A stretch of DNA of 64,000 nt, from positions 9,860-73,859 of the forward strand of contig JAUCBJ010005881.1 of the NCBI GenBank assembly GCA_032718475.1, written 5' to 3'. Below the pieces are notes generated by a model. That model worked only from the letters and a program-made list of their open reading frames with translations, had not been told where the DNA came from and did not search any database. A program made the translations under genes and the position numbers. Origin of the DNA: Nemertoderma westbladi. Its lineage: Eukaryota; Animalia; Xenacoelomorpha. Below, piece by piece: positions 4,931-30,998 of this stretch; position 1 is the first letter of the stretch; each line of letters begins with the position of its first letter.

Positions 4931-5059
4931 TATAGAATTATATTCTCTAAATGCCGTGGATTTTCAAAATTTTTATTTTATTCGAATTAACTTTGCTAAA
5001 GATTACATTAAGTCCTCATTTGTATTTGCTATATCTATTTGTACGATGATTAGTCAAGT

Positions 5060-5144: not shown

Positions 5145-5211
5145 GTGCAGAATTTCAACTCATTTAAATTGGCCGCTACAAATTAATTGCATTTACTCGA
5201 AGTAAGGTTAA

Positions 5212-5465
5212 CCAATGAGACTGTAGTTATTAGATTGTAACCAATGTCGTACGAGTTATATATTTGCTGGACCAATAGCTATCTTTAAAAACCTGTTAGA
5301 ACTCATAGAACAATCGAGAATTTTCTCGATTGATTGTGGCACAAATTTGGTATAAAAGGTGCGATTTCGTTCATTAGTTATCTCTCTCTATCTTTCTTTC
5401 TCAGTTACATTATTTCAGATTACATTGTTTATTGTATAATAGTTATCGTTTGATTTTGTAATAAA
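5212..5465 (+). promoter_or_regulatory. Candidate Pol II promoter and poly(A) signal of LTR 1
   Basis: CCAAT at 5212, 5241 and 5272 (about 30-bp spacing), TATAAAA at 5351, AATAAA at 5460. Confidence 0.55.
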
Positions 5466-7638: not shown

Positions 7639-10600
7639 ATGAGTGACAAACAAGACTATACGAAGAATACACCTACCGACTATGACTCATGTGATGCGGA
7701 TAAGTCAGCAGCGGAAGAACTACAAGGGAAGACTCGCGAGCCTACCGAACCTACACCGTGTGCGTCACCAGTACATCCAACGGGAGTACCGGATGCCGTA
7801 GTACGAGGCGACGGCAGGACCGAGGACTTTCTAACTGTTCCGCAACCTAGATATAGGGAAACGGACATGGTAAGTTCAGTAGGAAGCCAGGAGAGCGTGG
7901 TTAGAAGCGTCGGCGGATACATGGCGCATATTACCAGGAGTATTGGAGAAGGCCAACGCATATTAGACGAGTTGACCGCTCCGATGTCTCGGTTTGAGTT
8001 CTACACCCTCCAGGTTAGAGTACAAAGTAGAGTACATAAGTCCGTAGATAACCTTATCAGTCTACAAGATCTAGCTAGACAGAGACAGGATATGGATACT
8101 CAACTTAGAATCCTCGAGAAACTAATGATCGCTAGAGAGAAACTGATTCAGTTTAAGTCGACAATTAGGCAGATACAACAGGAACAAGCGGACCAGTTGT
8201 TAGGTGAGTCAGTTTCGGACGAATTATTGCAACCCGAGGAAGAACAGGAACTGTATAGGCTGGATGGACAATTGAAACACCTGACGGATCACTTACGCAT
8301 GTGCGGCGAGGACGTCGGAGATTGGGAAACCGTGCCGGAGGCTACGAGGGAAACTTCACTCGCACAAATCGAACCGGCACCGGGAACACTAGATCAATCA
8401 CTGGTGAGTATTCGCAGCGAAATTGGCGAGGTGAGTATGGCTACGTCAGAAATTGCTCGACAACAGCAGATCTACAGACAACAACAGGAGTGGGAGGAAC
8501 AAACTCAATTGCTAATGGCACAAGCAGCAGCAGAAGAAGAGAAACTACGCGTTGCGAATGTTGCGAGAATCTCTCATCTGCAAGAACAAGCTGAGTTGGA
8601 AGCAGCCGAAATGGAAAGGTTAGAGTTGGACATTGCACAACAAGCGGCAGCGGCCGAGTTAGCGCAACGAACGGCAGCGGCCGAGTTAGAGCGACAAGCG
8701 GCAGCGGCAGCGGCAGTGGCAGCGTCCGAGTTAGAGCGACAAGGGTTAGCTTCAGAAGTGAGAACCGAAATGAAAAAACGGCAAGTAAAGGCTCAGTCAG
8801 CTATACGACAAGCGGAGTTCGAGGCGCAACAACAACAAACGGAACAACGCGAGAAAGAAGTTAAACTTCGTTTCGAACTTGAGAAGAAGGCGAGAGAATT
8901 AGCCAACGCCAAGGAAGATTTGGATCTACAAGCCCGCGACCGATCGATGAGATCTCGAGACGGACATGATTTAGACCAGATGGAGGTAAGGCACCGCCAA
9001 ATCCAGGAACGAATGAAGGAAGGTTCGATAGGAGCACCTGGACGGGAACGACAATTGGTTAAAGACTTATGTCAAAGATTCCCTCAAGTAACTCCTATGT
9101 TTGCACCAGTTACGACTAAGGAACCTGTTTTGATTGCTGGTAGTAGTAATATTTCTCCTATCCATGGTGCGACAGAACACAGGTTTGTTATTCCGGACAA
9201 GTTTACACCGCCAAGAGCAACGTCATCGCCTATTCCGAAAGTCAAGGTAAGTAACCCACCGATTACAGATCGTAGTAGTTTGTTGACCGCACCTGCACTA
9301 CTGACGACTAAACAGGTGAGTCCACCTTCGACACCAAAACCCGCCAGAACATACACGTACCCAATGACTTTTAGGCCTACAAGGCCTTTAGATTCAAACG
9401 CTGTCATTCGACCACCGAACCAGTTTACATCGCAATCTACGACTTCGAGGAAGACTTGTGAGCCTACCGAACAACGGAGACCAGTGGATACGCTACCGTT
9501 CAACCAGTTTACATCGCAATCTACGACTTCGAGGAAGACTTGTGAGCCTACCGAACAACGGAGAACAGTGGACGATGTTCCGAAACGGAATGTTAGAATT
9601 CGAACGACACAACGGACGCGAGCACGTCAGCCACCGTATCCAGGTGACAGTAGTACTTCGAGTGAATCGGATTACCCGAAACGCGAGGTATTTAGAACAG
9701 GAGCGGCTGACGAATATAAACGTGAGCGTTCAGATAACTCCTTTATCGATAATCCTCCACAAAATACACCAACACAAAAGGCGTTACAACCAACGGACGC
9801 AATTAGTACGCAACAACTCGCCGAAATAATGCGCCCAGTTGTAGACAAGTTGGCTCAGATAGAGAAACGTTTAGAAGAAACTCAAACTGATAGTTCGCGA
9901 GGTAACGAGTTCGAACACTCTAGACACCCGAAGCAGCAAAGAAAACAACCCTCGAGAAACACTTCGTATCAAGGAAAAGCGCCAAGACGAGAGAACATCA
10001 ACTCGATTGTCAACCAAGGACGCGAAACTTTGAACGTGGCCGAGGAGATAGCGAAATTCGCCGCCAGACAAGGTTTACCGGTACAACAACCACCGAAGTT
10101 TTCAGGTAACTCGAAACATTGGCACACCTTTGTGGACTACATCGAAACACAAATAGCAGCGTGCGCCTTTACATCGAGGGAGAAATTCAACTACCTGCTA
10201 CAAACGCTGACGGGAGAACCGAAACGTCTAGCGGAGACCTTTGTCGGTGTACCAGATGCCTTCGAACTAGCGTATGATCGCTTAACTTCAATTTACGGTG
10301 GCACGGTGAGTATGGCTAAGTCAGTGATAGATGAACTCTGTAAAGGGGGGGCTATAACAAAACCCGTTGACTTACTAAAATTAGCTGACGAGATTAAGAA
10401 CGCCATTACTACACTACGCTCGATTGGACAACTTGACTACGCGAACACTCCGACAGTTCTATTGAAAATAATAGGAAGATTACACCATCGACTTCGTCGG
10501 GAGTGGCGAAAGATAGAATATCAGCGAGAAGAGAGAGGCGGATTCTTGAAGTTGGAAGACGTCTACTTACTGATATCCAGAGAGGCAGTCGTTGAGACGC

Positions 10601-13600
10601 GTTCGAACTACACGGACCAACATATCGTGGCGGAGGGAATAACATTACCATCCTCGAACCGACAAAAACCCCAAACAACATCCACCAAGACGGTTACTTA
10701 CGCCACATCGACCGACACCCGACAATTTTCGGACAATAATAAGGTATCCGCACCAATTGGAACCAAACAGATCCGACAGCAACTGACCACAGATTTTAGC
10801 GGTTGCCAATATTGTGAACGGCTAGGTAAACGACATACTAGCCATAAACTGAGAGGTTGTCGACTATTCTGCGAATTGAACTCGGAGGAACGACGATTAC
10901 AAATACGACCATTGGACTCTTGTTGGCGGTGTACGCTACATGGACATGTCTGTAAGGACTGCCCAAATACAGACACCTGTCCTTCTTGTGGACGCAACCA
11001 CGACGGCTTGCTACATACAGACAGTCATACGCCGACCAAACGCTTCACCAGGGAACACCCGGAAGCTGCAGCAAGATGCAACACAGCATATAAGGGTCGA
11101 GAGTCGAAAACAACACCGACATTCGTGACGCACATTAGAGATTGTTTCTCGGAACAATCAGGATCGTCAGATGAAGAGTCGGAAGACGAAGACGTTTACT
11201 TTGATACTGGAGACGAACAACCATCGATTGCGCTTCTGACGCCTGATCAACTAAAGGGGTTTAGTATAATACCTGTCAAGATTACTGGCATCAAAGGGAG
11301 CAAGAGGATCTACGCTATCCTGGATTCAGCCTCATCTCATAGCTACGTGGATGAGAAAGTAGCTGATGTTGTGACGGATCTCCGACAAGGTAAGAACGTC
11401 AGTTACACCGTAAGTAGTATGCATGGACAACGTGCAATACCAGTGACACGAGTTAAGTTGAACTTAGACACTCTTCTTCCGAAATCGCAACATAGCGAAA
11501 AGGAGAGGTCTTTGTTACCCTTTAAGGATTTAACCTTTGCGGCCACAAAGGACTTTAGTAACCTACTAGGTCCTGTCCCAGAACAATCCTTGGAGGACCA
11601 TAAGTACTTCAGACACCTTGGTGTACCTGAATGTCCTGTCAACTATAGGTCGGTAGCAATGCTGATCGGGACAGATCAATTCAACCTACATCAAGTGTGG
11701 GAAACCAGACCATCGGCAGTCGTAGCGGGAAACGCATACGCCTGTAGAACGCCGATAGGGTGGTATACTCGAGCGCCTGTGCGCACACTGGATATAAGTG
11801 ACGAGGAAGACGATATACAAAGTACATGTAGTTTATTAACTACAACTTCGACTCATTCCTTTTCACACGACGTAGACTATACTACACTACATTCGACAAA
11901 ACATGACACGACGTGTGTAGCGAGTATGATAAGTCACAAGGAGCAGCTAATCCACCAGGTGAGTTTAGAACTTGGGAAGAAGACGAGTCAGCCAGAGATT
12001 CCATCGACGACAGATGATAACGCCGGAAGACTTGCGAGCCTTTCTACACCAGACATATCGCCAGACACGTTACCAGACGTATCACCAGACGCGTTACTAG
12101 ACGGTCAACCAGACATTTTGCCAGACATATCACAAAATGTTCTACCAGACACTAGTAACATATTGACAAATAGTAAAGCCGCAGTTTCTCTATTGGAGCG
12201 GCCTTCTACAGACAATCAACCAGACACGTTACCAGACGTATCGCCAGACGCGTTACTAGACGGTCAACCAGACGTTTTGCCAGACACGTCACTAGATATT
12301 TCGCCGGATGTTCCGCGAAACATTTTACCAGACATGTCACAAAATGTTCTACCAGACACTAGTAACATATTGACAAATAGTAAAGCCGCAGTTTCTCTAT
12401 TGGAGCGGCCTTCTATTGACAAACAACCAGACGCGTTACTAGACGGTCAACCAGACGTTTTGCCAGACATGTCACTAGATATTTCGCCGGATGTTCCGCG
12501 AAACATTTTACCAGACATGTCACAAAATGTTCTACCAGACACTAGTAACATATTGACAAATAGTAAAGCCGCAGTTTCTCTATTGGAGCGGCCTTGTATT
12601 GACAAACTACCAAATTTGACACACTTGAGCAACAATAAGCACAGTGAAACCTCATGTATTACAGATGTGGGTAGTACCTACGTAAATGTAAATACAGGTG
12701 TTACTTTGCGCTCAAGAGACATACCAAACTTGCAACCTATGGTGAAACCTGGGATTAATATCGGCAGAAAAATAAGTTTACCGAAACCCACTGACCCCAT
12801 AGAGTTCAAACCACCATTAACGATCGACTTACAAAGTACTGACAACCAAGGTAAGAAAACAAGGAAGGACAAATTACTTGTAGACCCGGACGGATCAACA
12901 GTCAACAAGGGAATACTTACCGGCGGACCCGTGGGCCCTTCTAGTAAATCAAAACCTTCCAAATTCTCCATTGACTTACCTGATGACGTCACAAATACTT
13001 ACGTCGACCGCATTGTAAACCTAACAGATTCTTGGACAAACGCTTGCCGAAAATTAGCGTGGATTGTACGTTTTGTACAATACGTTAAAGGCAAACGCGA
13101 CTTTACACGTCGACTTACATTGACTGAGATTGACAGGTGTGAAATTAAATTAATTCGCCATTACCAACTGCGATATTTCGCACGCGAATTCACATCTATA
13201 AATCAAGGTCAACCAATCAAGTCGTCACCAATATTGAGTTGGAGTCCGATAATTTATAATGGCTTAATTTGTCATAAATCTCGGCTTCAAAACATTGACT
13301 TTAACACAAACTTTAGATACCCAATAATAATATCGCAGCATCACGAACTACAACGTTCAATGATACTGGACGCACATTTACATCTGAAACACGCTGGAAG
13401 ACACCACTGTCTTTCCTACTTACATACAAGATTTGTATTAATTAGACCCAGTAAAGCGTTAAGTTCAGTGACACGTACGTGTATTATTTGTAAAAAGGTA
13501 CATTCTAGAATAGGTACCCAAGAAATGAGTGAACTTCCACAAGCACGACTTCAAGCATTCAGACCACCTTTTACAGAGACTGGAATTGACTGCTTTGGTC

Positions 13601-14511
13601 CCATACATACGAAACGTGGACGTATACTAGTAAAACGCTGGGGACTGATTTTCACATGTATGTCCAGTAGGGCAGTTCATATTGAACGTGTGATGGATCT
13701 TTCCACCAACGCGTTTATACTAGCATTGCGGCGATTTATCGCTAGACGCGGACTAGTGAAATGCTTGTACTCAGACCAAGGGACAAACTTTGTTGGTGCT
13801 CGAAATGAGATTGCTAGAGCCTTTAAGAAATTAGATCATGATCAAATCTCAAACGAACTACGTCCTTACAAGATTGTTTGGAAGTTTAATCCTCCAGATA
13901 GTCCATGGAGAGGCGGAGTCTGGGAGAGATTGATTAGATCTATAAAGACAGCCATGGCAAAGGTCATTCCAGTAAACCACATTTTGACAGACGACCAACT
14001 GACAACACTGTTTGTTGAAATCGAGGCAATACTAAATACTAGACCAATAGTATTAGTACCCGATGACAAACAATCCCAGTTTGCTTTAACACCGGCACAC
14101 CTGCTTATGCAGGCACCGACTACTTTAACGCCTATTTCTTTTCCAACAGAAGGCGATAGCTACGGTAGAAAAGCGTGGAAAATCAGGCAACTACTAGCTA
14201 ACAAATTCTGGGAAATATGGCAAAACCATTATTTGCCCTCTATTTCTGCCAGAACAACATGGTACAATAACACCCGCGCATTAAAGCCGGGAGATCACGT
14301 GCTGTTAGCGGAAGTGAATCTAAAAAGACGCTTCTGGATAACAGGTGTAATTTTAGCCACACATCCATCTATGGATGGAGTGACAAGAACTGTGACAGTA
14401 CGGACAATTGACGGTCGTACAGTTGACAGACCGACTCAACGTCTCGTACTTCTTGAAGAGACTCGTAACGAGTCTGGAGACTACAAATCTCCAACTAATG
14501 TTAGTAAATAA
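7639..14511 (+). CDS. BEL/Pao polyprotein Gag-protease-integrase lacking RT and RNase H (2290 aa)
   Basis: Gag PPKFSG...W..F; knuckles CQYC..H..C, CWRCTLHGHVCKDC, CPSCGRNHDGLLH; protease AILDSASSHSYV; IN HLHLKH...CIIC, TGIDCFGP, YSDQGTNF, GGVWERLIRSIK; no YxDD or DAS motif. Confidence 0.93.
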   Translation: MSDKQDYTKNTPTDYDSCDADKSAAEELQGKTREPTEPTPCASPVHPTGVPDAVVRGDGRTEDFLTVPQPRYRETDMVSSVGSQESVVRSVGGYMAHITRSIGEGQRILDELTAPMSRFEFYTLQVRVQSRVHKSVDNLISLQDLARQRQDMDTQLRILEKLMIAREKLIQFKSTIRQIQQEQADQLLGESVSDELLQPEEEQELYRLDGQLKHLTDHLRMCGEDVGDWETVPEATRETSLAQIEPAPGTLDQSLVSIRSEIGEVSMATSEIARQQQIYRQQQEWEEQTQLLMAQAAAEEEKLRVANVARISHLQEQAELEAAEMERLELDIAQQAAAAELAQRTAAAELERQAAAAAAVAASELERQGLASEVRTEMKKRQVKAQSAIRQAEFEAQQQQTEQREKEVKLRFELEKKARELANAKEDLDLQARDRSMRSRDGHDLDQMEVRHRQIQERMKEGSIGAPGRERQLVKDLCQRFPQVTPMFAPVTTKEPVLIAGSSNISPIHGATEHRFVIPDKFTPPRATSSPIPKVKVSNPPITDRSSLLTAPALLTTKQVSPPSTPKPARTYTYPMTFRPTRPLDSNAVIRPPNQFTSQSTTSRKTCEPTEQRRPVDTLPFNQFTSQSTTSRKTCEPTEQRRTVDDVPKRNVRIRTTQRTRARQPPYPGDSSTSSESDYPKREVFRTGAADEYKRERSDNSFIDNPPQNTPTQKALQPTDAISTQQLAEIMRPVVDKLAQIEKRLEETQTDSSRGNEFEHSRHPKQQRKQPSRNTSYQGKAPRRENINSIVNQGRETLNVAEEIAKFAARQGLPVQQPPKFSGNSKHWHTFVDYIETQIAACAFTSREKFNYLLQTLTGEPKRLAETFVGVPDAFELAYDRLTSIYGGTVSMAKSVIDELCKGGAITKPVDLLKLADEIKNAITTLRSIGQLDYANTPTVLLKIIGRLHHRLRREWRKIEYQREERGGFLKLEDVYLLISREAVVETRSNYTDQHIVAEGITLPSSNRQKPQTTSTKTVTYATSTDTRQFSDNNKVSAPIGTKQIRQQLTTDFSGCQYCERLGKRHTSHKLRGCRLFCELNSEERRLQIRPLDSCWRCTLHGHVCKDCPNTDTCPSCGRNHDGLLHTDSHTPTKRFTREHPEAAARCNTAYKGRESKTTPTFVTHIRDCFSEQSGSSDEESEDEDVYFDTGDEQPSIALLTPDQLKGFSIIPVKITGIKGSKRIYAILDSASSHSYVDEKVADVVTDLRQGKNVSYTVSSMHGQRAIPVTRVKLNLDTLLPKSQHSEKERSLLPFKDLTFAATKDFSNLLGPVPEQSLEDHKYFRHLGVPECPVNYRSVAMLIGTDQFNLHQVWETRPSAVVAGNAYACRTPIGWYTRAPVRTLDISDEEDDIQSTCSLLTTTSTHSFSHDVDYTTLHSTKHDTTCVASMISHKEQLIHQVSLELGKKTSQPEIPSTTDDNAGRLASLSTPDISPDTLPDVSPDALLDGQPDILPDISQNVLPDTSNILTNSKAAVSLLERPSTDNQPDTLPDVSPDALLDGQPDVLPDTSLDISPDVPRNILPDMSQNVLPDTSNILTNSKAAVSLLERPSIDKQPDALLDGQPDVLPDMSLDISPDVPRNILPDMSQNVLPDTSNILTNSKAAVSLLERPCIDKLPNLTHLSNNKHSETSCITDVGSTYVNVNTGVTLRSRDIPNLQPMVKPGINIGRKISLPKPTDPIEFKPPLTIDLQSTDNQGKKTRKDKLLVDPDGSTVNKGILTGGPVGPSSKSKPSKFSIDLPDDVTNTYVDRIVNLTDSWTNACRKLAWIVRFVQYVKGKRDFTRRLTLTEIDRCEIKLIRHYQLRYFAREFTSINQGQPIKSSPILSWSPIIYNGLICHKSRLQNIDFNTNFRYPIIISQHHELQRSMILDAHLHLKHAGRHHCLSYLHTRFVLIRPSKALSSVTRTCIICKKVHSRIGTQEMSELPQARLQAFRPPFTETGIDCFGPIHTKRGRILVKRWGLIFTCMSSRAVHIERVMDLSTNAFILALRRFIARRGLVKCLYSDQGTNFVGARNEIARAFKKLDHDQISNELRPYKIVWKFNPPDSPWRGGVWERLIRSIKTAMAKVIPVNHILTDDQLTTLFVEIEAILNTRPIVLVPDDKQSQFALTPAHLLMQAPTTLTPISFPTEGDSYGRKAWKIRQLLANKFWEIWQNHYLPSISARTTWYNNTRALKPGDHVLLAEVNLKRRFWITGVILATHPSMDGVTRTVTVRTIDGRTVDRPTQRLVLLEETRNESGDYKSPTNVSK

Positions 14512-15043
14512 TTAGGAGTTTACAAATAGATTTCCACGTACCTGTACACTGTAGTAAAGACAGCGGTAGAATTCCATTGTCTTTATATGTGAACATTGAG
14601 GGTAATACCCTTATGTATCACATAGGAGCGGGATTTGTAGGTATAAGAAATGGAATTATACTTGGAACTCACAATATTGAGACATTTTCGAAACTTTAGA
14701 CAATCCATTTGGATTTGAAAAAATTTTAAAATTTTCTCCAGTGAATAGATTTCAGGGTACAGTCGGGTGGAACTTAAAATTAGAGAAACAAGAGAGGAAG
14801 ACTTGCGAGCCTTTCTTAAAATTTTAATTAAATTTTACACGGTCTTGTTTCAATAAGTTACGTCAAAATAGACTTCCCTATATTTATTACTAATTCTTGA
14901 TTGCTTATTTTCTGATAATAGTTTGGGATCAAAAAGTGAGTATTTTAGACTCACAGCCAGTTTAGCCCAAATTCGTTTTTTATTTCGGCAAAAATTTTAG
15001 ATAAGAAGCAGCGTGTCATTAAAGAAACCCTAGATCTTAGGCT

Positions 15044-16666
15044 ATGGGTAGGAGGTTAGAGCGTTGTCGAGCCAAAAAAGGCAGACGAAAACTCTCACGT
15101 CTCCTCACAACTAACTACAAACTCTGTTGTAATCCCTCTAGTAGTAATGATTATGTAACTACACCTCTAATTATGGAGAGGATGCGTGTATTGGGCTATT
15201 ACGTCACCTCCAAGAGCGGTCTTACAATATTATTTAGCAATAGAGTCGTCAGTGAATGTTTGCTTAATAACAAACGTATCGTGGAGATTACGGATGAATC
15301 ACGGCAGACGCGCGCACCTATCGGTCACCTTGGTGATGATTTCGAAGTAACGACTACGATCACTGACGATCCTTTAGAGGAACTTCTTGAGATAGAAAGG
15401 AACCTCCCGAAGAAATCTCAGACGGAGATTCGACAACTTGAAGCAACAGATGCTATAGTTTGTATACAACCTTCAGAAACCTACCAACCCATAGATCCAG
15501 ATGATTATGATTATAGTGTGGGAGGAAGCGCTCGACCAATTGGAGATCTTATATAAGAACGAGTGTGGTACCCTGCCAATACGATGTGTGGTAAATGTGG
15601 CGTCGCTGGACATCATTCGACCAAGTGCAGTGGAAAGCACATTACTACGACTCAACTAATCTGTGGATGGTGTGGAGATCAAGGGTCTCATACCTTTTAT
15701 ACTTGCTGGAGATTTATGGCTCAATGTACTTATTGCAATATAAAAGGGCATCGAGCATCTGAATGCCAACTAAGAGACATACCCTATGAACACGAATCTG
15801 TAAAACTCGTGAGAAAACTATTCGATGAGTGGGAAGATTTAGCCGACGAACACGTATCGGCACAAAGAAGACGATTTCCGATGAGGGCGCATCTTGGATT
15901 TTGGGCGGTAAATCCCCAAACGATGATGTCGGAAGGATACATCTCCGCTATGCCCCAATATGACGAACTTATCGAGGTAGTCGATATTTTGCCTCACGAC
16001 AGTCGATTCCGAGTAGTGCGTGAGTATCTATTACAGATTCACCCAGACAACAAGAACACGTGGAATTTTCAGAAAGTCGTAAATCGTATCACGTATGGTG
16101 AATTTGATCGTTTTCGAACTGAAAAGCGGAATAAAGGAGCTTGGTTAACCGTCGCATGGGCGTACCGAGCCGCGTTTTACCACAAACGTATACGAGCGAG
16201 CGTATTCGAGGAAGAGGAGATCCTAGAGGCGACAAATATACCAGCCACTCCGGTTGCGCCGTCTGCACGTCACACTCGGGAGGACGGGCAGGGTAGGATC
16301 ATAAGGGTCCAGAAAGTTAGCCAACAATTAAAGAAGTCTATTAATATAGAAGAACGCAAGGGAGTTGAGCCGACCATTCGAATTACTCGGGATACGGTAT
16401 CGCTTCCTAGAGAACCAACAGGAGGATCGGGACATACACCAGCTGATCAAAAGGGGGCGCAAGCTACTCTTGGGTCTGTGTCGTCCGCTTCCCGCGCATT
16501 CCCAGACGTTTTACCAACTGTAGTGACAACTGATCGGTCACGAGGAATCGGTCGAGGTTTTGGGATGCCAAATAGACGAATTTGCGAGGAAATAGTCGCA
16601 CCGTCTCCCAACGTCCAAACGAAACCAGTGACTCGCCCCACGAGTCCCATATCGCGAGCAAAGTGA
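15044..16666 (+). pseudogene. Accessory ORF of element 1, triple zinc-knuckle protein with one in-frame TAA (15554-15556)
   Basis: ORFs 15044-15556 and 15563-16666 share a frame; CGKCGVAGHHSTKC, CGWCGDQGSHTFYTC, CTYCNIKGHRASEC; start codon uncertain. Confidence 0.75.
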
Positions 16667-17502
16667 CCTGTGCGCAGTTTTCGAGGACGCGGCAGGGCTC
16701 GATCCACTAAGCGATAAAAGGGAGGGCAAGGGTGGACGGAAGACTCGTGAGCCTTTCTTGTGAATTTGTGATTTATTTGAATTATATGTTTTATATTTAA
16801 TTAGTAAGTTTTGTATTCTGGAAGAACTCATATTTAGTAAGATTTATATTTAGTAAGAATTTATATTTTGCAAGATTTATATTTTATATTTGTGATTATT
16901 CCGAACTTATGCAATTTATATTGTTCCGAATACTATGCAATTTATATCTTATAAGCAGTATTTGTATTTACAGTGAAATAGAAAGTAAGAGTAGATGGAA
17001 GACTCGTGGGCCTTTCTTATAGTTTCATTTGTAAAGTGTTATATTTGTATTTAGAAAGTTTTATAGTTAGAAAGTTTTGTACTTAGAAAGACTCATATTT
17101 GTAATTATTCCGAACTTATGCAATCTACATTTAGGCACGAAAGTATTTGTAATTATTTGAATTTATGCAATATTTGAGATGCAATAGTAGATGGAAGACT
17201 CGCGAGCCTTTCTTATGATTTCATTTATTTGTATTTGTAATTGTTTGAATTTATGCAATATTGAGATGCAATAGATTTATATTGGTGAATTTAATTTAGA
17301 TTTATATTGTACTTACTTAGTAAAGCCTTAAATATGTAAAGTTTGAATTTGTAATTATTTTGTATCGAATTATTATGTAGAAAGGAAGTATTGCTTGAAA
17401 TTTAATTTGTAAATATGTAAGTACGCGACGCCCTAAGTATTCTATAATTTGATTGATTATTGGTGAAAACCGTATATTTTATGCACGATAATATCCTGTT
17501 TT

Positions 17503-17512
17503 CATGGAGCGG
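17503..17512 (+). other. Polypurine-tract-like site of element 1 (CATGGAGCGG)
   Basis: Immediately precedes the 3' LTR; resembles CTGGGTGCGG at the same position in element 2. Confidence 0.65.
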
Positions 17513-19410
17513 TATAGAATTATATTCTCTAGATGCCGTGGATTTTCAAAATTTTTATTTTATTCGAATTAACTTTGCTAAAGATTACATTAAGTCCTCA
17601 TTTGTATTTGCTATATCTATTTGTACAATGATTAGTCAAGTGGTTCAGTAGCTCAGTCGGTAGAGCGTTGGAAATTATATGTAGTGTGTATTGAGTTCGA
17701 ATCCTAGTAAGTGCGAATTATTTTTTGTGCAGAATTTCAACTCATTTAAATTGGCCGCTACAAATTAATTGCATTTACTCGAAGTAAGGTTAAGCAATGA
17801 GACTGTAGTTATTAGATTGTAACCAATGTCGTACGAGTTATATATTTGCTGGACCAATAGCTATCTTTAAAAACCTGTTAGAACTCATAGAACAATCGAG
17901 AATTTTCTCGATTGATTGCGGCACAAATTTGGTATAAAAGGTGCGATTTCGTTCATTAGTTATCTCTCTCTATCTTTCTTTCTCAGTTACATTATTTCAG
18001 ATTACATTGTTTATTGTATAATAGTTATTGTTTGATTTTGTAATAAAAGTTAGAAATACTTGTCACATCTGCCCTTTTCTATCTGTTTTATCATGCTTCA
18101 CCACGGTGAACCCAACTGAGGGACAGGATGGCTGGCTAGACATCGGGCCGCAGCAATGAACGGGAACATCAAAGGAATGTAGACACGAGACAACCCGCAA
18201 TATCATCTTAGTTATTCGCCCATCGCCTGAAAGGTTAGACAGCGTTCGATGCCTTGCTACCTAAGTATAAGACCAAAGATCGAAGGTAGAGGTAGTGACA
18301 CGCTGTACGCCTAAAATTACATCTAGGGACTGTACTTTCTTAATTCAGGAAAAAACCGCAGTAGACCTTCATATTCCTACGGGGGGGAGAGGAGAGAGCT
18401 CAGGCAGAGATACTAGTACGCAGATAGGACGTAGGCACACCGGTACAAGGCATACACATTGGTAGGGTGCAGCAAACTGTACGCCTAACTCTTGCTAAGT
18501 ACAGGTGCGTCTGTGACTATTTGTAGTACAACGGTGTCCATTGCATCAGAACTTGTAGGCCAGGAGAGTTGCTGTGTTTCACCTGAATTAGGATTGTACC
18601 GTTCAGGCGGTAGGGCAGTTTACGACTAGGCGCAAATAAATTGAGGCTAATTAGGGATACTAACATCTACCGTGTTCCCGCCGACATCCTGATAGGAAGT
18701 TACCAAGCCCACCTAGGTAACCAAAATTCTAGATAGGACGCCAGGCTAGCTATTAGTAACCGTACGCCTACTGTAGTAAACTAACACATTTCTTCTTAGT
18801 ATTAGGGACCTGGTAAATTAAAATTGCCGAATTCTGGGCGTAGTATTAATCTCATGCCTGAATTTGAGTCCTGGAAATACGCAAGAGGGGAAGGAGCCTT
18901 ATCATTCGTGAGTATTGGCCCTACAAGTTACAAAATTAGAATATTCGTAAAATGCACACCGTACCCAGTAATTATATATGTGAAGGAGCAAAACTGATCT
19001 TGACTGTTCAGAATTAACACACGCGCGTTAAAAATTATTTACATCTCAAAATATATAAAATTAACTTTTGTCCGTACTGCACTTTGCCCGCTAGTTAGAC
19101 ATCTCCAAATCTCTGCACCTAGCTAGCGTCTCTTTCGCCCAACCATATAAATCACACCGCAGCAAAGTACACGAGCCCTTTAGTCCGTCAGTGAGTCAGC
19201 CTGATTTTAGGATTCGCTGCGCGGGATTTTGTTTTATCGAAGTTTGTCTGTTCGTAGACTGTTTTCTGCCTCACCGGTTATAAGGGACCAATACTGCAAT
19301 ATATTCGCTTACTTGGAGTTTAATGTTTTGGTGAGAAGGTCGGATTTATGATTTGATTCACAAACTTTACAGTAAGATATTGCAGGTATTGTTACTGTCT
19401 CTTCGAATTA
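17513..19410 (+). repeat. 3' LTR of element 1 (1898 bp)
   Basis: Direct repeat of 4931-6829, followed by TSD GAGAT. Confidence 0.95.
17642..17726 (+). promoter_or_regulatory. tRNA-derived Pol III promoter-like segment in the 3' LTR (intact A and B boxes)
   Basis: TAGCTCAGTCGG at 17649, GAGTTCGAATCC at 17693 with tRNA-like spacing, T6 at 17721-17726. Confidence 0.75.
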
Positions 19411-19428
19411 GAGATAGATAACTAAACG
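19411..19428. repeat. 18-bp remnant of the 34-bp satellite between the two retrotransposons
   Basis: GAGATAGATAACTAAACG matches monomer variants seen near 4451 and 4824 and contains both inner TSD copies. Confidence 0.9.
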
Positions 19429-20608
19429 TGTAAAGGCTTTTGCGGAATTAGCCGGTTATTTTCCCGGTAAAGTACTCTGTAGTTGGTTTAACAGGCATAA
19501 AAGGCCGTGTCCTTACTGTACTGGTGTTTTAGAGGACATAAAAGTCATTTCTTCTGTATGTGTACTTTAGCGGACATAATTCGCAATTTTATGACGCAAT
19601 GCGCCAAATCCTCTGTAAACAGTGTAGCTACCATGACGACGGCTAACAGCTGATGCTGTACACGTGGAGCCTTTTCTTTGTTCTCTGTTCCTTCTTTGTT
19701 CGGTCGACCAATCAGAGTGTTTTTGCCTCTGTGTTAGAGATTGTATATAGAAACTCGTGGAGTTGAGTCAGTATGTGATTTTGTCCACAGCCTACAACAC
19801 AGGCTTTGGAACCTCCGTGTTTCAGTCTTTAGCCCAACATTAGTAGGCTTAATTATAGAACGTATATCTGTTATCAATCCAAACTCAATAATCATAACTT
19901 ACTCACTCACTCATAACTTAACAAACCATTCATAACTTAACATTTTACTGCTTTTACTGTCGGTTATTCATTATATTTGTTGATGGAATATTATATTTGG
20001 AATACTGATAAATAATCAGACACCCCAATCTTCTTGATATACTAAAGGTTAGAGAGACCGGTTACATATAACGATTGCGACTTACATTAAGTGGTTTGAA
20101 GTGAATCTAATGCTATTTTATAGGCCCTACATGTATTGTCTGTTGTTCTCCTTATATGTGACTAAAATTAATGAAGGTCGGCAGATCAGTGTGCAGCATT
20201 GTGCAGTATTGTGTATGATTGTGATTGATAACAAAGCATCTCCTAAAGAATGCGCCATATACGTGAATCTATAGCCATTCCGTTGTGTCTAGTTTAAGTC
20301 ATAACTCTGTTTATATATTTAAAGCGCCACGTCCTAAAGGAACTGTTAATATTTCCCGAAAGTGAATAATATTTGTCAGAGATTATATATATTACGATCA
20401 GTCGAATAATACAGTAGGCCTACCCCGCAATACGGTTAGGCTTCCGAATCCAGTCTCCCGGGTATATCCAGCGGGTGAATGATCGCGCATAGACTGGCTT
20501 CGGCTAATGTAGTGTATCAAATACTTGTCATAGGCTAAAGATGATCTATCATCTAAAAGACATCCCAATTTGGCAGGTTAAACTGCTAAAGGTCTGAAAA
20601 CGCGAACA
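19429..20608 (+). repeat. 5' LTR of element 2 (1180 bp)
   Basis: Matches 36861-38040 with about 11 substitutions counted by eye. Confidence 0.96.
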
Positions 20609-20890
20609 ATAACAGATATACCTTCTGTATTGCAGTAGGCAATAACGCTGAAGTACCGGACAACCGGTACCTAGTAGGCCTGACTACCTAACCACCCGGA
20701 CCGGTACCTACAGCAGTACAGGTACATCAGTATTATTCGATTGTGAAATTGTATACCGGTAGGCTGTTTAAGAGATTAGGGACTGTACACCCCTTGTTTC
20801 TTTTGGAGCTTACTTATTTCTGTCAGTTTTATTTATTTGTAGGCCAGTATTGAGCAGAAGGCGTGTAAGCCTGCTCAGATTGTACAGACA

Positions 20891-21455
20891 ATTTGTAGGC
20901 TAGACTGTTGTCTGACTGTTGTTAAGTCTGAAGGGACTGTAGTGTGTGTAGAGCATATGTCCGAAAAAGTACTAGTTAGGAAAGTAGGGGCTGCCAGTGC
21001 TGTGAGGTGAACCCCCCAAGAAAGAATAAGTCGTACTACTCGGTTAGAACGCATACTAACTAACCATTTCGGAGTCTGCATATATTGTAGTTTATTTAGG
21101 CTTGATAGTAGTCTGCCAGCGTTTGGTCTGTACCTTGTTTGTGTAGTTTGTATGGGTAGCGTAATAGTTCTTATTTAGATAATTTGTAGGCTGGATTTTG
21201 TCTGACTGTTGTTAGGTCTTGAGAGATTTCGGTGTGTGTAGAGTGTATGTCCGATAAAGTGCCAGTTGGGAACGTAGGGGCTTCCAGAGCTGTGAGGTAA
21301 ACCCCCTCGAAAGTATAAGTCGTACTACTGGGTTAGAACGCATACTAACTAACCATTTTGGAGTCTGCATATACCGTAGTTTGTTTGGGCTTGACAGTAG
21401 TCTGTCAGTATTTGGTCTGCATTTTGTTTGAGTAGTCTGTACGCGTAGCGTAATA
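20891..21455 (+). repeat. Tandem duplication (~291-bp period) in the 5' leader of element 2
   Basis: ATTTGTAGGCT...GTCTGACTGTTGTTA...GGTTAGAACGCATACTAACTAACCATTT occurs twice, starting at 20891 and 21182. Confidence 0.85.
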
Positions 21456-22791
21456 TTTATTATTCAGAGTTTATGCGATTATTCGCAACATTCATATCCC
21501 CAAGTTTATTCCTACAGTAATTGTGCTTGTTATATATACCGTTATAGTTAAACTAACCCCGGTACTACATCAGGGCTGCTTGGCGTAGGTAAAGACTGGT
21601 GATTTTGTGCCCCGGTCACTCCAGCAGATACCGTGGTTCTTTTAGCTGTTCAAGTATTTTTAACTACTGATTATTTGTTGTATAAGTACTTGTACCTAAT
21701 TTAGGGTTTAGTGTACAGTGCTTTCCGAAGGTGATTAGTGTGTAGGCAGTATATTTGTGTTGTAAAGTGGTTAATAGGCACGTTGGTTCTGGTAGACCGC
21801 GGTAATTAACTTCTAGGTAGGAACACTCCGTGATACATAACGTAGTACTTATAGCGCCACGGCTATAAGTCGTCAGACGGTGGTATTTTTCTATCTGGAC
21901 AACGCAGTATATTTACTACTACTTATTATTTTCAAATACCGTAGTACCCTGTCCTTTGTAATAACCAGATATTCTAACCCTTTGTTAGGCTGGTTAGTAA
22001 ACTTCTTGTAAAACTACCCTAAAAATTTGTACTTGTAAATTTTTGTGTTTATTTAGAGATTGTAATCTCACCTCGAATTGTACGTAATTTGTAGTATTAA
22101 GTAACTTAGGTAAATTAGAATTATTTGTTTTAGTGTCCAACAAGTAGCACTTCACTGAGAGCGCACAGCTTCTGTGTAGTGACTCCCCCCAGAAATAATA
22201 ACATTTATTTCAAATATTGACAAAACCCATTTAACGGGTAAATATATTATAAATCAACTCAAACCGATTTATAAAATAGTAGGCCTGCCATACAACAATT
22301 AGGTCTCAAGATCAGTTAGACTACTGCTCAAATAACGGTAATCAAGTAAAGCAAAGTAACCAAGTAACCCTAAAAATTCAGAAATTCAATTATTCTAAAA
22401 TAATTGATATACTATTTACAATAGGCTTATTATATTTATTTCTATAAATTTAGGCTGAAATTATACCGGTATTCTGTAATTAATTCTAGTCCATAATTAT
22501 ACTTATATATACTATAAGTGTAAGCTGTATACCGGTATTCACGATAGGCCTATTATATATTTATATATACTTGTGCTGAAATTACATACCGGTATTCTGT
22601 GACTAATCTAGTCTGTGACAATACTTATATATATATACTATAAGCATACCGGTATTCTAATATATTATATATATATTACGCTACACTGAGTAGCAGTATC
22701 GGTAATTAATTACTAGGCTAACAGTGATACTGAATTACTAGACTTGCTTAAACTGTAATATAGCAGTAGGCATTCAACTGTACAAACCAAC

Positions 22792-25700
22792 ATGTCCGAC
22801 ACAAAGCAAAACCTGTCAGATAGTCTCCTAGATACAACCATATGTGACCCAGACAGGAGTGTGGAACGTGTAGGACCGAAGTTCAACTCACCTCCTACTG
22901 TAAGAAAGATCATCCCTCCCGTAGTAATATCAGACCCTAGGCTAGTCCAACATCGTAGGTCTATCATAGGCACTTGGGCTCAGGTCAAGCGGGACCGAGA
23001 AGCAGCAGAACAGCAACAACCCGTGAGCCAATAACTTATTTCTCAGCGGCCCGACAGCTCCAGTAGTGCGGATACTGTAGAGCTGACACCCGAACACGGC
23101 GCAAAGATGACAGATGTGGTTTATTCGGACCCCCTTCTCATCCTTCCTGCAGCCGTACTCACTAGGTTATTGATTGCGGTGGAAGAACACCAGATCGATT
23201 GGGCGAGAAATAAGCGATAAACTAAAGATAGTTATGCGGGATACACAAGGGAAGAACTGAAGTCTATTGTCGAGTCGCAATGGAACTTCCCCGGACCCGG
23301 ACTCCCGTTTGATTTATCAGAAGCTGCCTGGGAAGACATACACAGGATGGGAGTAACCAAGGAAACCATCGATCCAGCTGTGTGGAAGAGGTCCGCAGCC
23401 GGATACGTACAGGGATTCTTCAGCTCCATGGAGCGATTAGAAGAACAACTGTTTCAACAACCCCAAGGACCTCAAGAGCAGGGACAGCTGCTTTATCAAG
23501 TTAGAGAAAGAATTCTACGAATCAGGCTAATCTTATCGGCCTTTGAAGAGGCTTCTAAAAGAAGACAAGACACGTCGTTGCAAGTTGCCGTAAAGACTTG
23601 GTTTCAACGGGTGAGTCTCCAGGTGCAAGGAACGGCTCAGTGGAAAGCCCAGCTGGATGAGCGCTCAACCCATGGAGAATCAACAGATGCTACTTTTTCC
23701 CAAGTGGAAAGTGAAGCGACGGCAGAGAAACCGCATAAGAGGAATGCCATTGACATCTATCTGTCAGACTATCAACGTTTTTTAGGTGATGAAGAGTTGA
23801 GGAGAAGGCTAGATGGACTTAGCCCTAATAGTGAAGGAACCCAGCGTGTGTTGGACGCCATCGATGTGGATATGAGAGCTGCGAACCAAGCTAGATTTGA
23901 TGAATGCCTCCGCATCACTAGAGTCCAAGAAGAACAAGTGAAGAAAAAACGTATAGAAGACAGAAAGACAGCGGCAGTGGCAGCAGCAGTGGCAGCGGCA
24001 GAAGCAGAAAGAAAAGCGGCAGTGGCAGCGGCAGAGGCAGAGGCAGAAGCGGAAAGAAAAGCGGCAGAGGCAGAGGCAGAAGTGGAAAGAAAAGTGGCAG
24101 CGGCAGCGGCCGAAGCGGAAAGAAAGGCGGCTATGACAGCGGCAGAGGCAGTAGCAGAAGCAGAACGGAGAGCTTCCGAAGAAACCACCCAATTAGAATT
24201 GGAAAACATTCAGGAGAATCAAGACTGCATAAATAAACAGTTAACAGCTAGTAATATGCAGATGATGAGTCGATCTACTCCCAAAAGACAGGGATATACA
24301 TCATCTGAGGAAGGCGATACCACCGATACTGAAGGCGGAGGAAATAGATCTCGTCTAAGCAGATGTAAAAGAACATCCCACCGTCAGAAATTGCCTGATT
24401 TGCCCCCAGCTGTTAGAAGGCAACTAAATAACACAAACTTAGGTAGTACAGAACCCACAGACCAAATAATTAAAATAGAAAGACTCCCTACTATAATAGA
24501 TGAGCCTGAAATAATTAGGCCTGTTCCCAAAGCCACCCTTTCGGTGATAGAGACACCTGTACTCCCTGAACCTACCTCTAAATTCCCTCTGCACAGCACT
24601 AAGCTATCTGTGCCCCACAGAACCACCCTTGAAAATGTTCATGTCCTGGACTCCGAGCGAAATATTCATGATTTGTCGCCCGTTGTCCCTCATCCGCCCG
24701 CTACAACGTTGGCGCCTCCCGCTTCGGCGGTCGAGTGGGTAGATGAGGGACGACGGGAGATGGGTCTCCTGCTCGGACAGCTGAGGGAACAACATTCTCG
24801 CTCCTCTCAGCAGGCCCAGGAGATGGAGGGAACTGTGCAGCAGTTAAAGGGAACGATTAGAGAGAGTAGGTTAGAGTTGCAAGAAGTGCAGCAAAGTATC
24901 GCGTTAGAACGCGATAAATTAGTAAATACACAAAAGGGTATACCACCAACCCCGGTAACAATGTGTCAACCTGTTAGGTCTGAAGTATTTCATGCGCAAG
25001 GTGTGGAGCCTACACACATATATACTGCTAGCGAAGTAGAAACTCCTATAGTGAACCCTATTAAGGGTAATTATAGACCTGTTGATAATGATATTCCCTA
25101 TAGACCTGATCATAATCCGAGAAATTTATATACCGATAACTCGATATTAAATAACACGATGGCCCAAGAAAGTTTTACGCGTCAAATGGCTAGAACCGAA
25201 GTCCGTCAAGCGGTAAAGGTGGGAGAGATAGTCAAGTTCAATGGAGAGGTCAATGGAGAGGAGATGAAATGGTTACCTTTTAATGAATATTATAAAGATA
25301 ACATACAGAACTCTGTACTATCTAATGGGGAGAAACTTAGATTCCTCATCGAGTGATTGGAAGGATCTCCCAAGTTAATGGCGTTAAAGTTTATTGGACA
25401 TCCAGACGGATTAAGACAAGTTTGGGATACACTAAACATCAGGTATGGTAATAGGAATAACATAGCTAAATATTTGTATGCAAAATTAGTAGCGCCCCGA
25501 AAGTTCATTAGCAGCGGGATAATAGAGTTTTCCGATGAGATTCAAGAGATCTGTAGACAATTAGATTGGTTAGGTAAGTCTCATGAATATCAGAGTTCTA
25601 TGGTTATTGGAGCCGTGGCTTCTACTTTACCGAAGGGTGGAGTAGGTACACGCTGGGATAAGAAAGTGTTATATATGATGGAACAACAACGACGAGACCC

Positions 25701-28700
25701 TACCATGGCTGATCTCATGTCATTCTTAGATGGAGAAGTGAAATTACAGCTTCTAAAACAGTCCAGAGAGAAGACACCGGAAAACAAGGTAAGTGAGAAA
25801 CCCGTTTCTAGGAGAAAGGTAACACCAGTGTGTTATACAGACGACTGCGAAAGCCAAACTTCTCAAGGAGAGGATAGCGGGAAAGACACTGAAAGATCTT
25901 ATTATGTCAATAAAATGCCTAAAGAACAGGTAAGTAAATTCAAGTCTCGAACCAATGACAGGAGAGAACAGGTAAGAAAAACTCCTCCTACGTCTCCTAA
26001 GAGAATTCAGGTGAGAAAGCCGAAGAAAGAACGAGTGTGCACAATGTTATTCAAAATAAGGTAAGTAACATCAAACCGAAATGTGCGCTATGTGACGGGA
26101 CCCACCGTTTGAATATGTGTGATGAATTCCTGAAGAAATCATTAACGGAGAGACGGGAAGTCATGTGGGATAAGCGGTTGTGTTATAATTGCCTCAGACA
26201 AGGACACCAACGGCGAACCTGTTACTCCGACACAAGGTGTGCAAAGTGCGGTGCGAAACATCATATCTTGTTGCACACTGAATTTGAGCGAAACAGCCAG
26301 AGTCAGGTAAGTGATTCCGAACTACATGTCCAATTCAGTGATGTGAACGACACTGACCAAAGTTCTGAGATGGAAGGATTCTATACAGATGAATTCTCCG
26401 ACGAAGGTGAATCCTGTTACATGATAAATACCGCAGTGTATCGAGCACTTACGTATGAAAAAGACACAGACAGCGACCTCACCCTAACTACTTCTGATCG
26501 ACGACCATCTTGGAAAGCGCCACCTTACAATGTAGGAATCCGAGAATTTCCTGTAGTACAGGTAAGGGTCCACGGACCTAAAAGGAGTTATGTAGTGAAC
26601 GCCCTCCTTGACTCCGGTAGTACAGGAACATTCATAGAAAAAGAACTAGCTGAAGACATCTTTGCTGGACAACCCAAGTTCAGAACTAAGCTAAACATGT
26701 CAGGAATTATGCAGGTTTGGAAATCTACAGTAATAGCGGATTATTATGTAGGTGCGTTGTCCACCCCCCAGGATGAACTAGGAGAACATAGTATAAGGTC
26801 CGTAAAAATGGTGGCGATAAAGAACTTCGCTACCACCCAAGTGGAACCTTATAACTGGGATGAGGACGATTTCACCCAGCAGCTGGAAATACCTAGATTC
26901 AACACCGATTACCCTGGAGTGCAAATACTCATCGGTCAAAACGCGCATGAAGCGCTCGAGACATTGGAGAAACGGCCCGCTCAACCGCAACCACTACAAG
27001 CTTATGCGGGAAGAACTAGAGTGGGTTGGTACTTTACTGGCCCTTCCCGTAGAACTCTCATGGAAAGATTACCGAAAGACCAGGTATATCAAGTAAGAGA
27101 ATGGGAAGTCGAGGGCAGTGAGTTAGACGATCCAACTGAGGGAACACCATACTCCTCAGATAATGACGATGTCCACCAACTTTTCGATGAGGAGAATACC
27201 ATCGATCTCCTTGAGGAAAACGAGACTTGGCAAAACCAAGGGAACTTATGTCAGCTCCTTCTTCCATCAGAACGAGACGACTATAACGACGAGCTTAATG
27301 ACGTCATTGAACGTTGTAATGCCAAGACTCGGGATGAACACGCCGTACGATTCTTTACTCAAGAGGCTGTAGAGCCCAATTCCTACGACAAGGCCCTATC
27401 GGTAGAGGAAGAAAGAGCCAAGCAGATCCAAGAGACAACTACACGTTTTCTTAAAGATCAAGGTAGATATGAGATCGGTCTACCTTTCCGAAAGCGAGAA
27501 CCAAAGTTCGTAAACAACAGACCCTTGGCGGAGAAAAGAATTGCTCAACTACATCGACGCCTTACGGCAAATTCTTCAGCTAAAGAAATGTATCAAACGC
27601 AGTTGGAGAAATTTATTAGTAAGGGATATGTGGAGCTAGTACCGGAAGAAACACTTATAACTGAGAGAACGTATTATTTAACTCACCATTACGTTCCCAA
27701 ACCCGGTAAACCCCATGAGGTACGAGTGGTGTTTGACGGCTCCGCCCTCTATATGGGCCAATCCCTTAATTCTGAATTGTTACCCGGACTCAACTTACTC
27801 CAATCCTTGTTGGGAATACTCTTAAGATTAAGACAATATTCAATCGCTTTCGCCTCAGATATAGAAGGCATGTTCTTACAAGTCAAGGCGCTGGATAGGG
27901 ATCGAGATAGCCTACGATTTCTGTGGTGGCCTGAAGGAGACCTCAACCAGAAACCGGTGGAGTACTGGATGACCATCCAGGCTTTTGGGATAATCTCAAG
28001 CCCTTCAAACGCCTGTTCAGTGGTGCGTACCACTGCGGATGACAACCGAGATGCCTTCTCTAAAGAGGTGATTGACAACATCAAGCGGGATATATACATG
28101 GATGACAATCTAAAGTCCCTTCCATCAGTCGAAGAAGCCATTGATGTCGCTAAAGGAACGGTAGAGTGCTTAAAAATAGGTGGATTTCGATTAACTAAAT
28201 TCACCAGCAACTCCCGTGAGTTTCTGGAGTCGATCCCGGTAGAAGATCGAGGAGCGAAAGACCTGGATCTAATAAAAGATGATCTCCCAGAAACTAAGAC
28301 CCTTGGTTTGAAATGGGACACAGAAAGAGATATCCTGTTTTTCCAACTAAAACAGCGAGATAATCCAGTTCGGACTAAACGTATTTGTTTAAGTATCCTG
28401 AGCACTTATTTCGATCCATTGGGATTTATTAGCCCAGTTATATTGATTGCTCGGAGTTTAGTACAACAAATGTGGCTTGAAAACCACTCATGGGACGATC
28501 CACTTAAGGGAGAATTGTTAAAGAAGTGGATGAAATGGGAAGATTCTCTACCAGCCATCGAGAACTTTATAATTTCCCGTTCATATTTTGGTCATGTTCT
28601 CCCTACGTATTCCTATCAACTCCATGTGTTTGGAGACGCCAGCAATATCGGAATAGGTATAGTAGCCTACCTAAGGGTGGAAACTCCGGACGGAATCAAA

Positions 28701-30998
28701 GTTGCCTTGGTTACCTCTAAGGCATTAATAAACAATAAGTTGAAAGTTCCTCGAGCGGATTTAAAAGCGGCTCTATACGCTACAGCCATCGGCCGGAATG
28801 TAACAGAACAGATCGACTATCCACTGGAGAAAACTGTCTATTGGACCGACGCTTTGCTCGTGTTGGAGTATATAACCAATGAAGTCTGTCAGTTCAGCGT
28901 CTTCGTTACCAACAGAGTAGCCATTATACTCAGTCGCACAACGATGGATCAATGGAGACATTGCCCCGGAACGATTAATCCAGCAGACATCGCTTCCAGG
29001 GGAGCAACTCCACAAGAACTGGTTGATACTCCAGACTGGCTAGGTGGACCCGACTTCCTCTACAAAGAAGAAGAAGAATGGCCTCCTCATCTTACTACCA
29101 CAGAGATTAGACAAGCCAAGGGAGTGGAGAAAGTCAAACCTAAAACTCAGGCGAGTAAATCGAAGTTATTCAAACCTATGGTAGATCTGTCTGTACTACA
29201 TACTTCCGGAGACGACGCCTTGGATCAGAAACCCACAGCCACAAATAAACTTGTTGTGGAAATCCGTGAGAAGGATTGGACATCTGGAATACCAGACGCC
29301 TCGCAAGGACTCTCACCTCTCCTGCAGAGAGCGATACATCACTACAGTTCCTGGAATCGGCTCTGTAAGGCCGTTACATATTTAAAAAGATGTTTTCACC
29401 ATCACTACTCCGGGATGAAGACCAAAAGTGATACCGCTCCAATAACATCGGTGCAGGTCCATGTTATTAAAGATCTTCCCAAATATAAGATATCCGACAG
29501 GTTTCTGAAGGAGAAGATCAGTTATCAGGAGCATGAAGAAACCAACAAGCAGATGCTGAGACTCCTGCAATGCTATGAGGATTCCGATAAGTATTTCCTG
29601 TTGTTGAGAAATCCGCAGATGCACTTAAGGGATCGTTTCTCTAGCACAATGATAGATGGGTTGATACGTGTTGGAGGAAGATTAACGAATGCTCCATTAT
29701 CCTTTGACACTAAGTTTCCCATACTCATTAGAAATCTTGAAATACAAGTCAAGATGATTGTAGACGTTCACAGCAAACTTTATCATGCTGGTAGGGAATG
29801 AGTTCTTAGCGAAATTCGAACTTGCTATTATTTTTATAAACCCCGTAGAGCTCTGAACCAAGTTCTTAGGAACTGCATACCCTGTAGGAAAGCATTCAGT
29901 AGGCCTTTAACACAGCGAGAGGCAGAATTACCTAGGGAACGAGTAAGCTTCTATGAACCACCCTTTACTAATACCGGTGTGGATTTATTTGGCCCTATTG
30001 AAGTATATCGTGCTAGGACTATAGTCAAGAGATGGTGTGTCATCTTTGTTTGTATGACTTGTAGAGCTATCCATCTCGACAGGGTGAACGATTTATCTAC
30101 CAACAGCTTTCTATTAAGCTTACGACGACAGATCGCTCGCTTTGGCACTAGTAACACGATGAGATCTGATAAGGGAACAAACTTCATTGGTGCCAACAAT
30201 GAAATCAAAGCTTACGTCAAAGATTGGAACCAAAGACAGGTGGACGATCAGCTACGAGTAACAGCGTCTAGCTGGACCTTCAACGCCGCCGACGCCCCTT
30301 GGTGGGGAGGAAGTTGGGAGAGATTAATAAGAAGTGTGAAAACCGCATTTCACTTTATAGTGCCGTGCCGCGCGTATCTCACCGACGAACTTTTGCGGAC
30401 GTTAATGGAGGAAATCGCCGCCTATCTCAACGAGAGACCGCTTATGCCAGTCTCATCGAGTCCCGATTCCCTGGAAGCGCTAACACCCGCGCATTTCCTA
30501 CTGAAGAAACCTGTAGCCATGCTCCCACAATCGGAAATCACAGACGGAGACGAATACTGCCGGCAAACTTGGCAACTCATGCAGTTGTTATCCCGTCGTT
30601 TCGCTGACCATTTCGAAAAACATTATCTGCCCACGCTACAACTTCGAACTAAGTGGTTTGCGCAGCAAGAAAACGTCAGCGCTGGAGACATGGTTCTTAT
30701 TGTGGATGTAGATCTTCCACGTAAGCGGTGGCAGACAGGTCGTATCATCGAGACTCACATCTCGGATGACGGTTTGGTGCGATCGGTAGAACTCGTCGTC
30801 ATGCGACGTAACTTCAAGAAACCGGGAATTGTCTTCGAGACACAGCAGCTCAATCGCCCAGTTGGTCGCTTATGTTTACTGGAAAGGGACAGAGAACTCT
30901 CCGGAAACTATGGGAGGCAAGATACTCTTCCCACGACCACCTCCCTAATCCAACAAACATCTAGGGACTATAAATTTTATTATAATCGTTTTCTTTAA
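22792..30998 (+). pseudogene. BEL/Pao gag-pol (Gag, PR, RT, RNase H, IN) disrupted by four stops and one frameshift
   Basis: Knuckles CYNCLRQGHQRRTC; PR ALLDSGSTGTFI; RT ASDIEGMFLQV and YMDD; RH LHVFGDAS, YWTD, NPADIASRG; IN TGVDLFGP, SDKGTNF, GGSWERLIRSVK; stops at 23032, 23218, 25354, 29799; frameshift near 26040. Confidence 0.93.

Follow-up and report, generated by a model that had tools for sequence, protein, structure and literature searches.

Self-priming of reverse transcription has been reported for the Tf1/sushi and Tcn1 groups of Ty3/gypsy retrotransposons (PMC6317226, PMC4600332). In Tf1, the RNA's first 11 bases pair with its primer-binding site (PBS), RNase H cutting between bases 11 and 12 (PMC7175516). 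In excerpts of PMC6317226, self-priming is likewise predicted for the TAR lineage of plant Ty1/copia elements (Houba, Osr-1), the criterion being at least 10 nt of LTR sequence complementary to a region that starts 0–5 nt after the 5′ LTR.

For BEL/Pao elements, the ICTV report on the Belpaoviridae lists an 18-nt PBS for tRNA-Arg or tRNA-Gly, a genome of 4.2–10 kb and 1–3 genes (PMC8742986), in agreement with the initial annotation of the present locus, according to which this superfamily is described with tRNA PBSs. Replication of the family is poorly understood per the same source (PMC8742986). No report of BEL/Pao self-priming was found in the open-access articles searched. A term look-up returned no mention of a PBS or tRNA from the accessible portions of BEL/Pao surveys (PMC554778, PMC3118150, PMC6238403, PMC2774666), and excerpts of four further papers held nothing on BEL/Pao self-priming (PMC8220671, PMC6934838, PMC13524379, PMC10886601). 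Here, we describe E2, an element from Nemertoderma westbladi whose proteins are of BEL/Pao type but whose PBS does not follow the tRNA pattern described for that group.

Anatomy of E2 and its neighbourhood

Self-comparison of the window, i.e. the whole 64,000-nt stretch of DNA analysed, revealed two LTR pairs, belonging to elements termed E1 and E2; the parts of E2 described below, and the 5′ LTR and pairing sites of E1, lie on the forward strand. The E2 LTRs (19429–20608 and 36861–38040) are 1180 nt long, bear TG...CA ends and differ from each other by 11 mismatches over the 1180 nt. The element is framed by a 5-bp target duplication, AAACG (19424–19428 and 38041–38045). Its gag-pol region of BEL/Pao type (23221–30998) is broken into four parts (23221–25356, 25357–26064, 26001–29801 and 29802–30998) by two in-frame stops and one frame change. 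Pfam domains comprise Peptidase_A17 (3e-35), DUF5641 (2.5e-20) and DUF1759, the last of which fell below the cut-off in E2 and above it in E1. The reverse transcriptase–RNase H (RT-RH) region had 1013 matches; the 120 of them that were listed are 39–44% identical to E2 and all carry PF05380, and the nearest named proteins among the matches listed come from echinoderms, corals, anemones and fish. E2 is a young BEL/Pao LTR retrotransposon with the domain order PR-RT-RH-IN.

The 2.6-kb leader between the PBS and gag contains a 291-bp tandem duplication (84%; 20886–21468) and a shorter one (22413–22676). Downstream of the integrase, at 32549–36537, E2 encodes two extra ORFs of 730 codons (32549–34741) and 572 codons (34819–36537), neither of which matched a Pfam entry. 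Cys/His knuckle-like motifs occur in the second, whose homolog in E1 is likewise an extra ORF (26% identity over 178 aa); for the 34846–36534 portion of the E2 ORF, no homolog was found among 7691 candidates, and Atlas returned a weak lead (0.81). A tract at the position expected for a polypurine tract (36847–36860) abuts the 3′ LTR and has a G-rich end, being not purely purine.

E1 lies 18 bp from E2, and both sit inside one tandem repeat of 34-bp units (3634–4930, 19411–19428 and 38041–38454), so that they possibly target a satellite. The E1 LTRs (4931–6829 and 17513–19410) are 1.9 kb in length, 98.2% identical, end in TA...TA rather than TG...CA and are flanked by a GAGAT target duplication. 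Between them, a single open 2290-codon ORF (7639–14511) encodes gag, protease and integrase without RT or RNase H, in place of which repeats are found; E1 is probably mobilised in trans. The extra ORF of E1 (15557–16666) also follows the integrase, likewise matched no Pfam entry and shares the Cys/His knuckle-like motifs of E2's 34819–36537. A stretch of the E1 LTR (5059–5135) resembles, by eye, what we take to be tRNA A-box and B-box motifs; neither ARAGORN nor Rfam called anything there.

Elsewhere in the window, a separate RT ORF (50558–52060; RVT_1, weak DUF6451) is likely a fragment of a non-LTR element. A 22-bp tandem array occurs in two blocks (38400–40700 and 48592–49340), and other tandem arrays occupy 1–595, 1464–2009 and 56590–59036.

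Pairing of the primer-binding site with the LTR

The initial annotation had described a PBS perfectly complementary to the element's own LTR, and the sequence bears this out. The predicted PBS of E2 (20609–20621) abuts the LTR end and is the exact reverse complement of a 13-nt LTR segment at 19862–19874, the predicted self-primer, 734 nt away. The same holds for the copy of this segment in the 3′ LTR (37294–37306), and none of the mismatches between the two LTRs falls inside it. It was also correctly stated that the helix begins with the base directly following the LTR and that no TGG is present there: the first TGG past the LTR end lies at 20804, 196 nt away. Four additional pairs had been proposed beyond a mismatch; these exist, yet the count was too low, as pairing resumes past a C-C mismatch over seven positions (19854–19860 with 20623–20629), comprising four Watson-Crick pairs, one G:U and two further Watson-Crick pairs. 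The duplex of PBS and LTR segment has a predicted energy of –23.4 kcal/mol.

Several comparisons gauge how readily such a helix arises. From base composition, its chance expectation is 8e-5 per offset. Thirteen anchored Watson-Crick pairs were reached in none of 1000 dinucleotide shuffles of the E2 LTR (1/1000 once G:U was allowed), and when 2900 starts past the LTR were scanned, 20609 alone attained them. When each PBS was combined with foreign LTRs across 22 real elements, at least 10 contiguous pairs occurred in 0 of 462 combinations. The pairing in E2 is a real feature.

In E1, a candidate PBS (6830–6840) again abuts the LTR end and lacks TGG, and it can form an 11-bp helix (eight Watson-Crick pairs, one G:U, two Watson-Crick pairs) with a candidate self-primer segment at 5787–5797, using letters unlike those of E2. 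The significance of this helix varies with the rule applied (2/1000 and 1/100 shuffles, but 26/200 and 46/100 under others), and E1 counts as modest support. A strong TATA (5351) and an AATAAA (5460), both upstream of the candidate segment, tell against it; in its favour, a TATA-like box lies 104 nt ahead. A spliced primer was considered for either element and dismissed, the best helix being contiguous in both.

Conservation of the pairing among relatives

Based on RT similarity, 122 loci were collected, 80 from metagenomes and 42 from prokaryote genome records. The BEL/Pao elements with LTRs in bacterial and archaeal records (L081–L122) most likely represent animal host DNA that was binned in. 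LTR pairs were searched for in the 80 metagenome loci and in 38 of the 42 prokaryote-record loci, from which we kept 15 relatives that lack a tRNA-type PBS and whose LTR pair defined the LTR end, along with five of the 11 with a TGGTCC-type PBS. Among the relatives kept, L116 is nearly a copy of L044 and terminates in CT, and L097 has a TGG one base past the LTR that is not of the TGGTCC type. Left out were six near-copies of L094, L059 and L064 (near-copies of L063), all loci with partial pairs, and L050, L054, L067 and L068 for ambiguous LTR ends. The LTR start is uncertain in L093 and was so in L030 until the final 22-element test.

In that test, one rule was applied uniformly: a helix starting 0–3 nt after the LTR, with at most one G:U, either contiguous or across a GT-purine...YAG intron. 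The rule had been fixed after earlier results on these elements and the test was not blind. E2 scored 13 bp and E1 11 bp. Self-pairing of 10–15 bp was present in 14 of the 15 relatives without a tRNA-type PBS, contiguously in L018 and across an intron junction in the other 13, and was equalled by at most 2/100 shuffles in each of the 14; the exception, L093, reached only 8 bp. All five tRNA-type relatives remained at 4–6 bp. Foreign pairs attained at least 10 bp in 14 of 446 cases, mostly against long LTRs, so single spliced matches in long LTRs call for caution. When the search was restricted to contiguous pairing, a clear helix was seen in three of 10 relatives (L018, L024, L044). The predicted introns span 71–451 nt, and the 12 donors listed are GTAAGT-, GTGAGT- or GTACGT-like, a stronger consensus than the GT plus purine of the rule.

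The letters of the helix change while the pairing is kept. At every one of helix positions 1–10, two or more kinds of pair occur, and eight of these positions have at least three kinds or a purine-pyrimidine swap. For instance, the sister families L083 and L085 have a common donor, and two exon-end letters change together with the two PBS letters that face them. The possibility of self-priming raised in the initial annotation has thus withstood a comparison with distant relatives: pairing persists with other letters in those lacking a tRNA-type PBS (14/15) and in none of the tRNA-type ones (0/5). Because most relatives keep the pairing with different letters, E2's group likely starts copying with its own RNA.

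An explanation by chance, or by a one-off inverted duplication that replaced a lost PBS in this E2 copy, is highly improbable. It would suit the facts that a single E2 copy, with an interrupted gag-pol, was read and that a relative in sequencing run X1 carries other letters after its LTR. The chance expectation given above and the recurrence of an anchored helix in E1 and in the 14 relatives, all distant from E2, argue against it. Among the contigs of run X1, two represent the relative just named, whose post-LTR letters differ from those of E2 at four of 13 positions and include no TGG; a further contig aligning over 42 nt and ending at 19877 was not counted as evidence. Six joints in the X1 contigs were not taken as introns, as they lack GT-AG ends. 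No E2 relative was found in the viral contigs searched.

An outside RNA could in principle use the same site. The helix would then be a conserved long-range RNA structure (for packaging or dimerisation, or acting as a splicing checkpoint or switch), and the primer would be a host RNA, for example half a tRNA. We regard this explanation as unlikely. The final letters of the E2 segment resemble what is presumably an Asn anticodon loop, which we counted in its favour. Helix positions 2, 6, 7 and 10 are partly conserved across families (in 13, 13, 13 and 11 of 15, respectively), a pattern that a common outside partner might produce, and Ty1/copia elements primed by half-tRNAs are known (PMC6317226). 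However, PBS letters vary by family and yet each PBS fits its own LTR, the helix starts within 0–3 nt of the LTR boundary, the place that a primer's 3′ end has to occupy, and it is missing in the tRNA-type relatives. ARAGORN at its default score called no tRNA in the window or the 122 loci, and Rfam gave no match in 4900–23300.

A tree of 38 RT rows, chosen from a 122-row tree, groups E2 with all 13 self-complementary rows and splits it from the five tRNA-type rows at 100/99. Within this group, E2 occupies a long unresolved branch (1.03), and its nearest RT relatives share ~43% identity with it. L018, with its contiguous helix, is sister to L022, which a blind scan scored as spliced; intron-free forms can therefore sit among spliced ones. 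The scan was exploratory, addressing loci without a defined LTR end, and many contigs lacked the relevant region: 38 of 41 loci were scannable and yielded five spliced helices of 11–13 bp, two contiguous ones of 11 bp and 31 of at most 10 bp.

Relatives whose helix begins at offset 1–3 (L004, L005, L030, L044, L056, L073, L077, L083, L085) mostly have two to three additional bases separating the 3′ LTR from the G-rich tract. E1, E2 and L063, with offset 0, have no extra bases there; L018 is an exception to this pattern. The extra bases could reflect terminal bases trimmed at integration.

Predicted priming and comparison with known systems

A motif scan predicted a promoter in the E2 LTR (19708–19772), composed of a CCAAT (19708), a TATATA (19744) and an initiator-like TCAGT (19768–19772); the latter two had been proposed beforehand and were recovered. 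From these motifs, the E2 RNA may start near 19770, an assignment to which we give slightly less than an even chance. A Tf1-style start near the pairing segment, at about 19850–19862, is the main alternative, which we deem less likely though a serious contender. A TATA-like box lies 118 nt before the segment in E2 and 115–144 nt before it in six of 13 relatives, a spacing reported here without a null control; two of these six also have a closer box, and the other seven have none at 115–144 nt. In the relatives, the segment spans a splice junction and therefore a first exon must precede it.

Predicted RNA folding speaks against a start at 19770. In the predicted fold of E2 RNAs beginning at 19740–19810, the helix is absent (P at most 0.02) and the segment prefers another partner, whereas the helix dominates (P 0.9 or more) only when the RNA begins at 19850 or beyond. 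Neither removing one of two candidate introns, 19771–19825 or 19771–19858, nor modelling the cut restored it in RNA from the predicted start. Among the relatives, the helix forms in six of nine spliced RNAs, in 0 of nine unspliced ones, and in L018. We consider such predictions on 900-nt RNAs informative, not decisive.

The poly(A) signals bear on another explanation, in which positions 37294–37306 mark the cleavage/poly(A) position and the RNA 3′ end folds back onto the PBS. None of the hexamers AATAAA, ATTAAA, AGTAAA and TATAAA occurs in the E2 LTR, leaving no canonical signal to fix the 3′ end elsewhere, as priming from the 3′ end would have it. Yet no canonical hexamer lies upstream of 19874 either, the downstream sequence is A/C-rich and not GU-rich, and a poly(A)-type hexamer follows the segment by 1–90 nt in 11 of 13 relatives. 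We view priming from the RNA 3′ end as very unlikely.

On the basis of the sequence, E2 reverse transcription is likely primed by a piece of its own RNA that pairs at the PBS, and not by a host tRNA. In such a scheme, transcription would begin ahead of the segment within the 5′ LTR, most plausibly near 19770, placing the segment at +93 to +105 of the RNA. The segment would anneal to the PBS, and a cut 3′ of 19874, made by the element's RNase H if E2 behaves like Tf1, would free a 3′ end. RT would then copy from 20608 back to 19875, and the resulting strong-stop DNA would jump to the repeat at the RNA 3′ end, a transfer that requires a poly(A) site downstream of 37306. The hexamer position in the 11 relatives agrees with this requirement, whereas the lack of a canonical hexamer in the E2 LTR counts against the scheme. 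Most relatives would have the segment interrupted by an intron, with host splicing bringing its parts together; E2 has it ready-made. The proposal predicts exact ends, i.e. a primer 3′ end at 19874 and a DNA start at 20608. The initial annotation had cautioned that, unlike in Tf1, internal cleavage would be needed. The RNA 5′ of the helix would indeed be longer, but the cut does not make the two fundamentally different, as Tf1 likewise depends on RNase H cleavage 3′ of its paired segment (PMC7175516).

Extended to the lineage, a large group of animal BEL/Pao elements may have dropped tRNA priming and use as primer a ~100-nt capped leader cut from their own RNA, most members building the segment by host splicing and E2, E1 and L018 being intron-free; for this broader reading we see the scales as evenly balanced. 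As host splicing would build the segment in most members, only spliced RNA would be copied, tying copying to host splicing in these relatives. If true, tRNA-independent initiation would extend to a third LTR superfamily, elements annotated without a PBS would be explained, and such elements would presumably escape silencing by tRNA fragments at the PBS.

Compared with the described systems, E2 resembles Tf1 and Tf2 of Schizosaccharomyces pombe, Tj1 of S. japonicus and the Tf1/sushi and Tcn1 groups in lacking a tRNA site and in an LTR segment, of ~11 nt in those elements, that pairs beside the LTR end (PMC7175516, PMC4600332). The resemblance is in the proposed mechanism only, as E2's proteins are BEL/Pao and place it outside Tf1/sushi, a Ty3/gypsy chromovirus RT lineage. 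Unlike in Tf1, the segment is predicted ~93–105 nt inside the E2 RNA rather than as its first 11 nt, E2's relatives split it by an intron, and the Tf1 mechanism is experimental whereas that of E2 is predicted from sequence. By the TAR criterion, E2 would be scored as self-priming (13 nt, offset 0, no tRNA PBS). It differs from TAR in superfamily and kingdom, and excerpts of PMC6317226 describe no splicing-split primer for that lineage. With the Belpaoviridae, E2 shares its Pao-type Pfam domains, the order PR-RT-RH-IN, an LTR of 1.18 kb, TG...CA ends and a target-site duplication; it differs from them in having no tRNA PBS, a length of 18.6 kb and two extra ORFs (PMC8742986).
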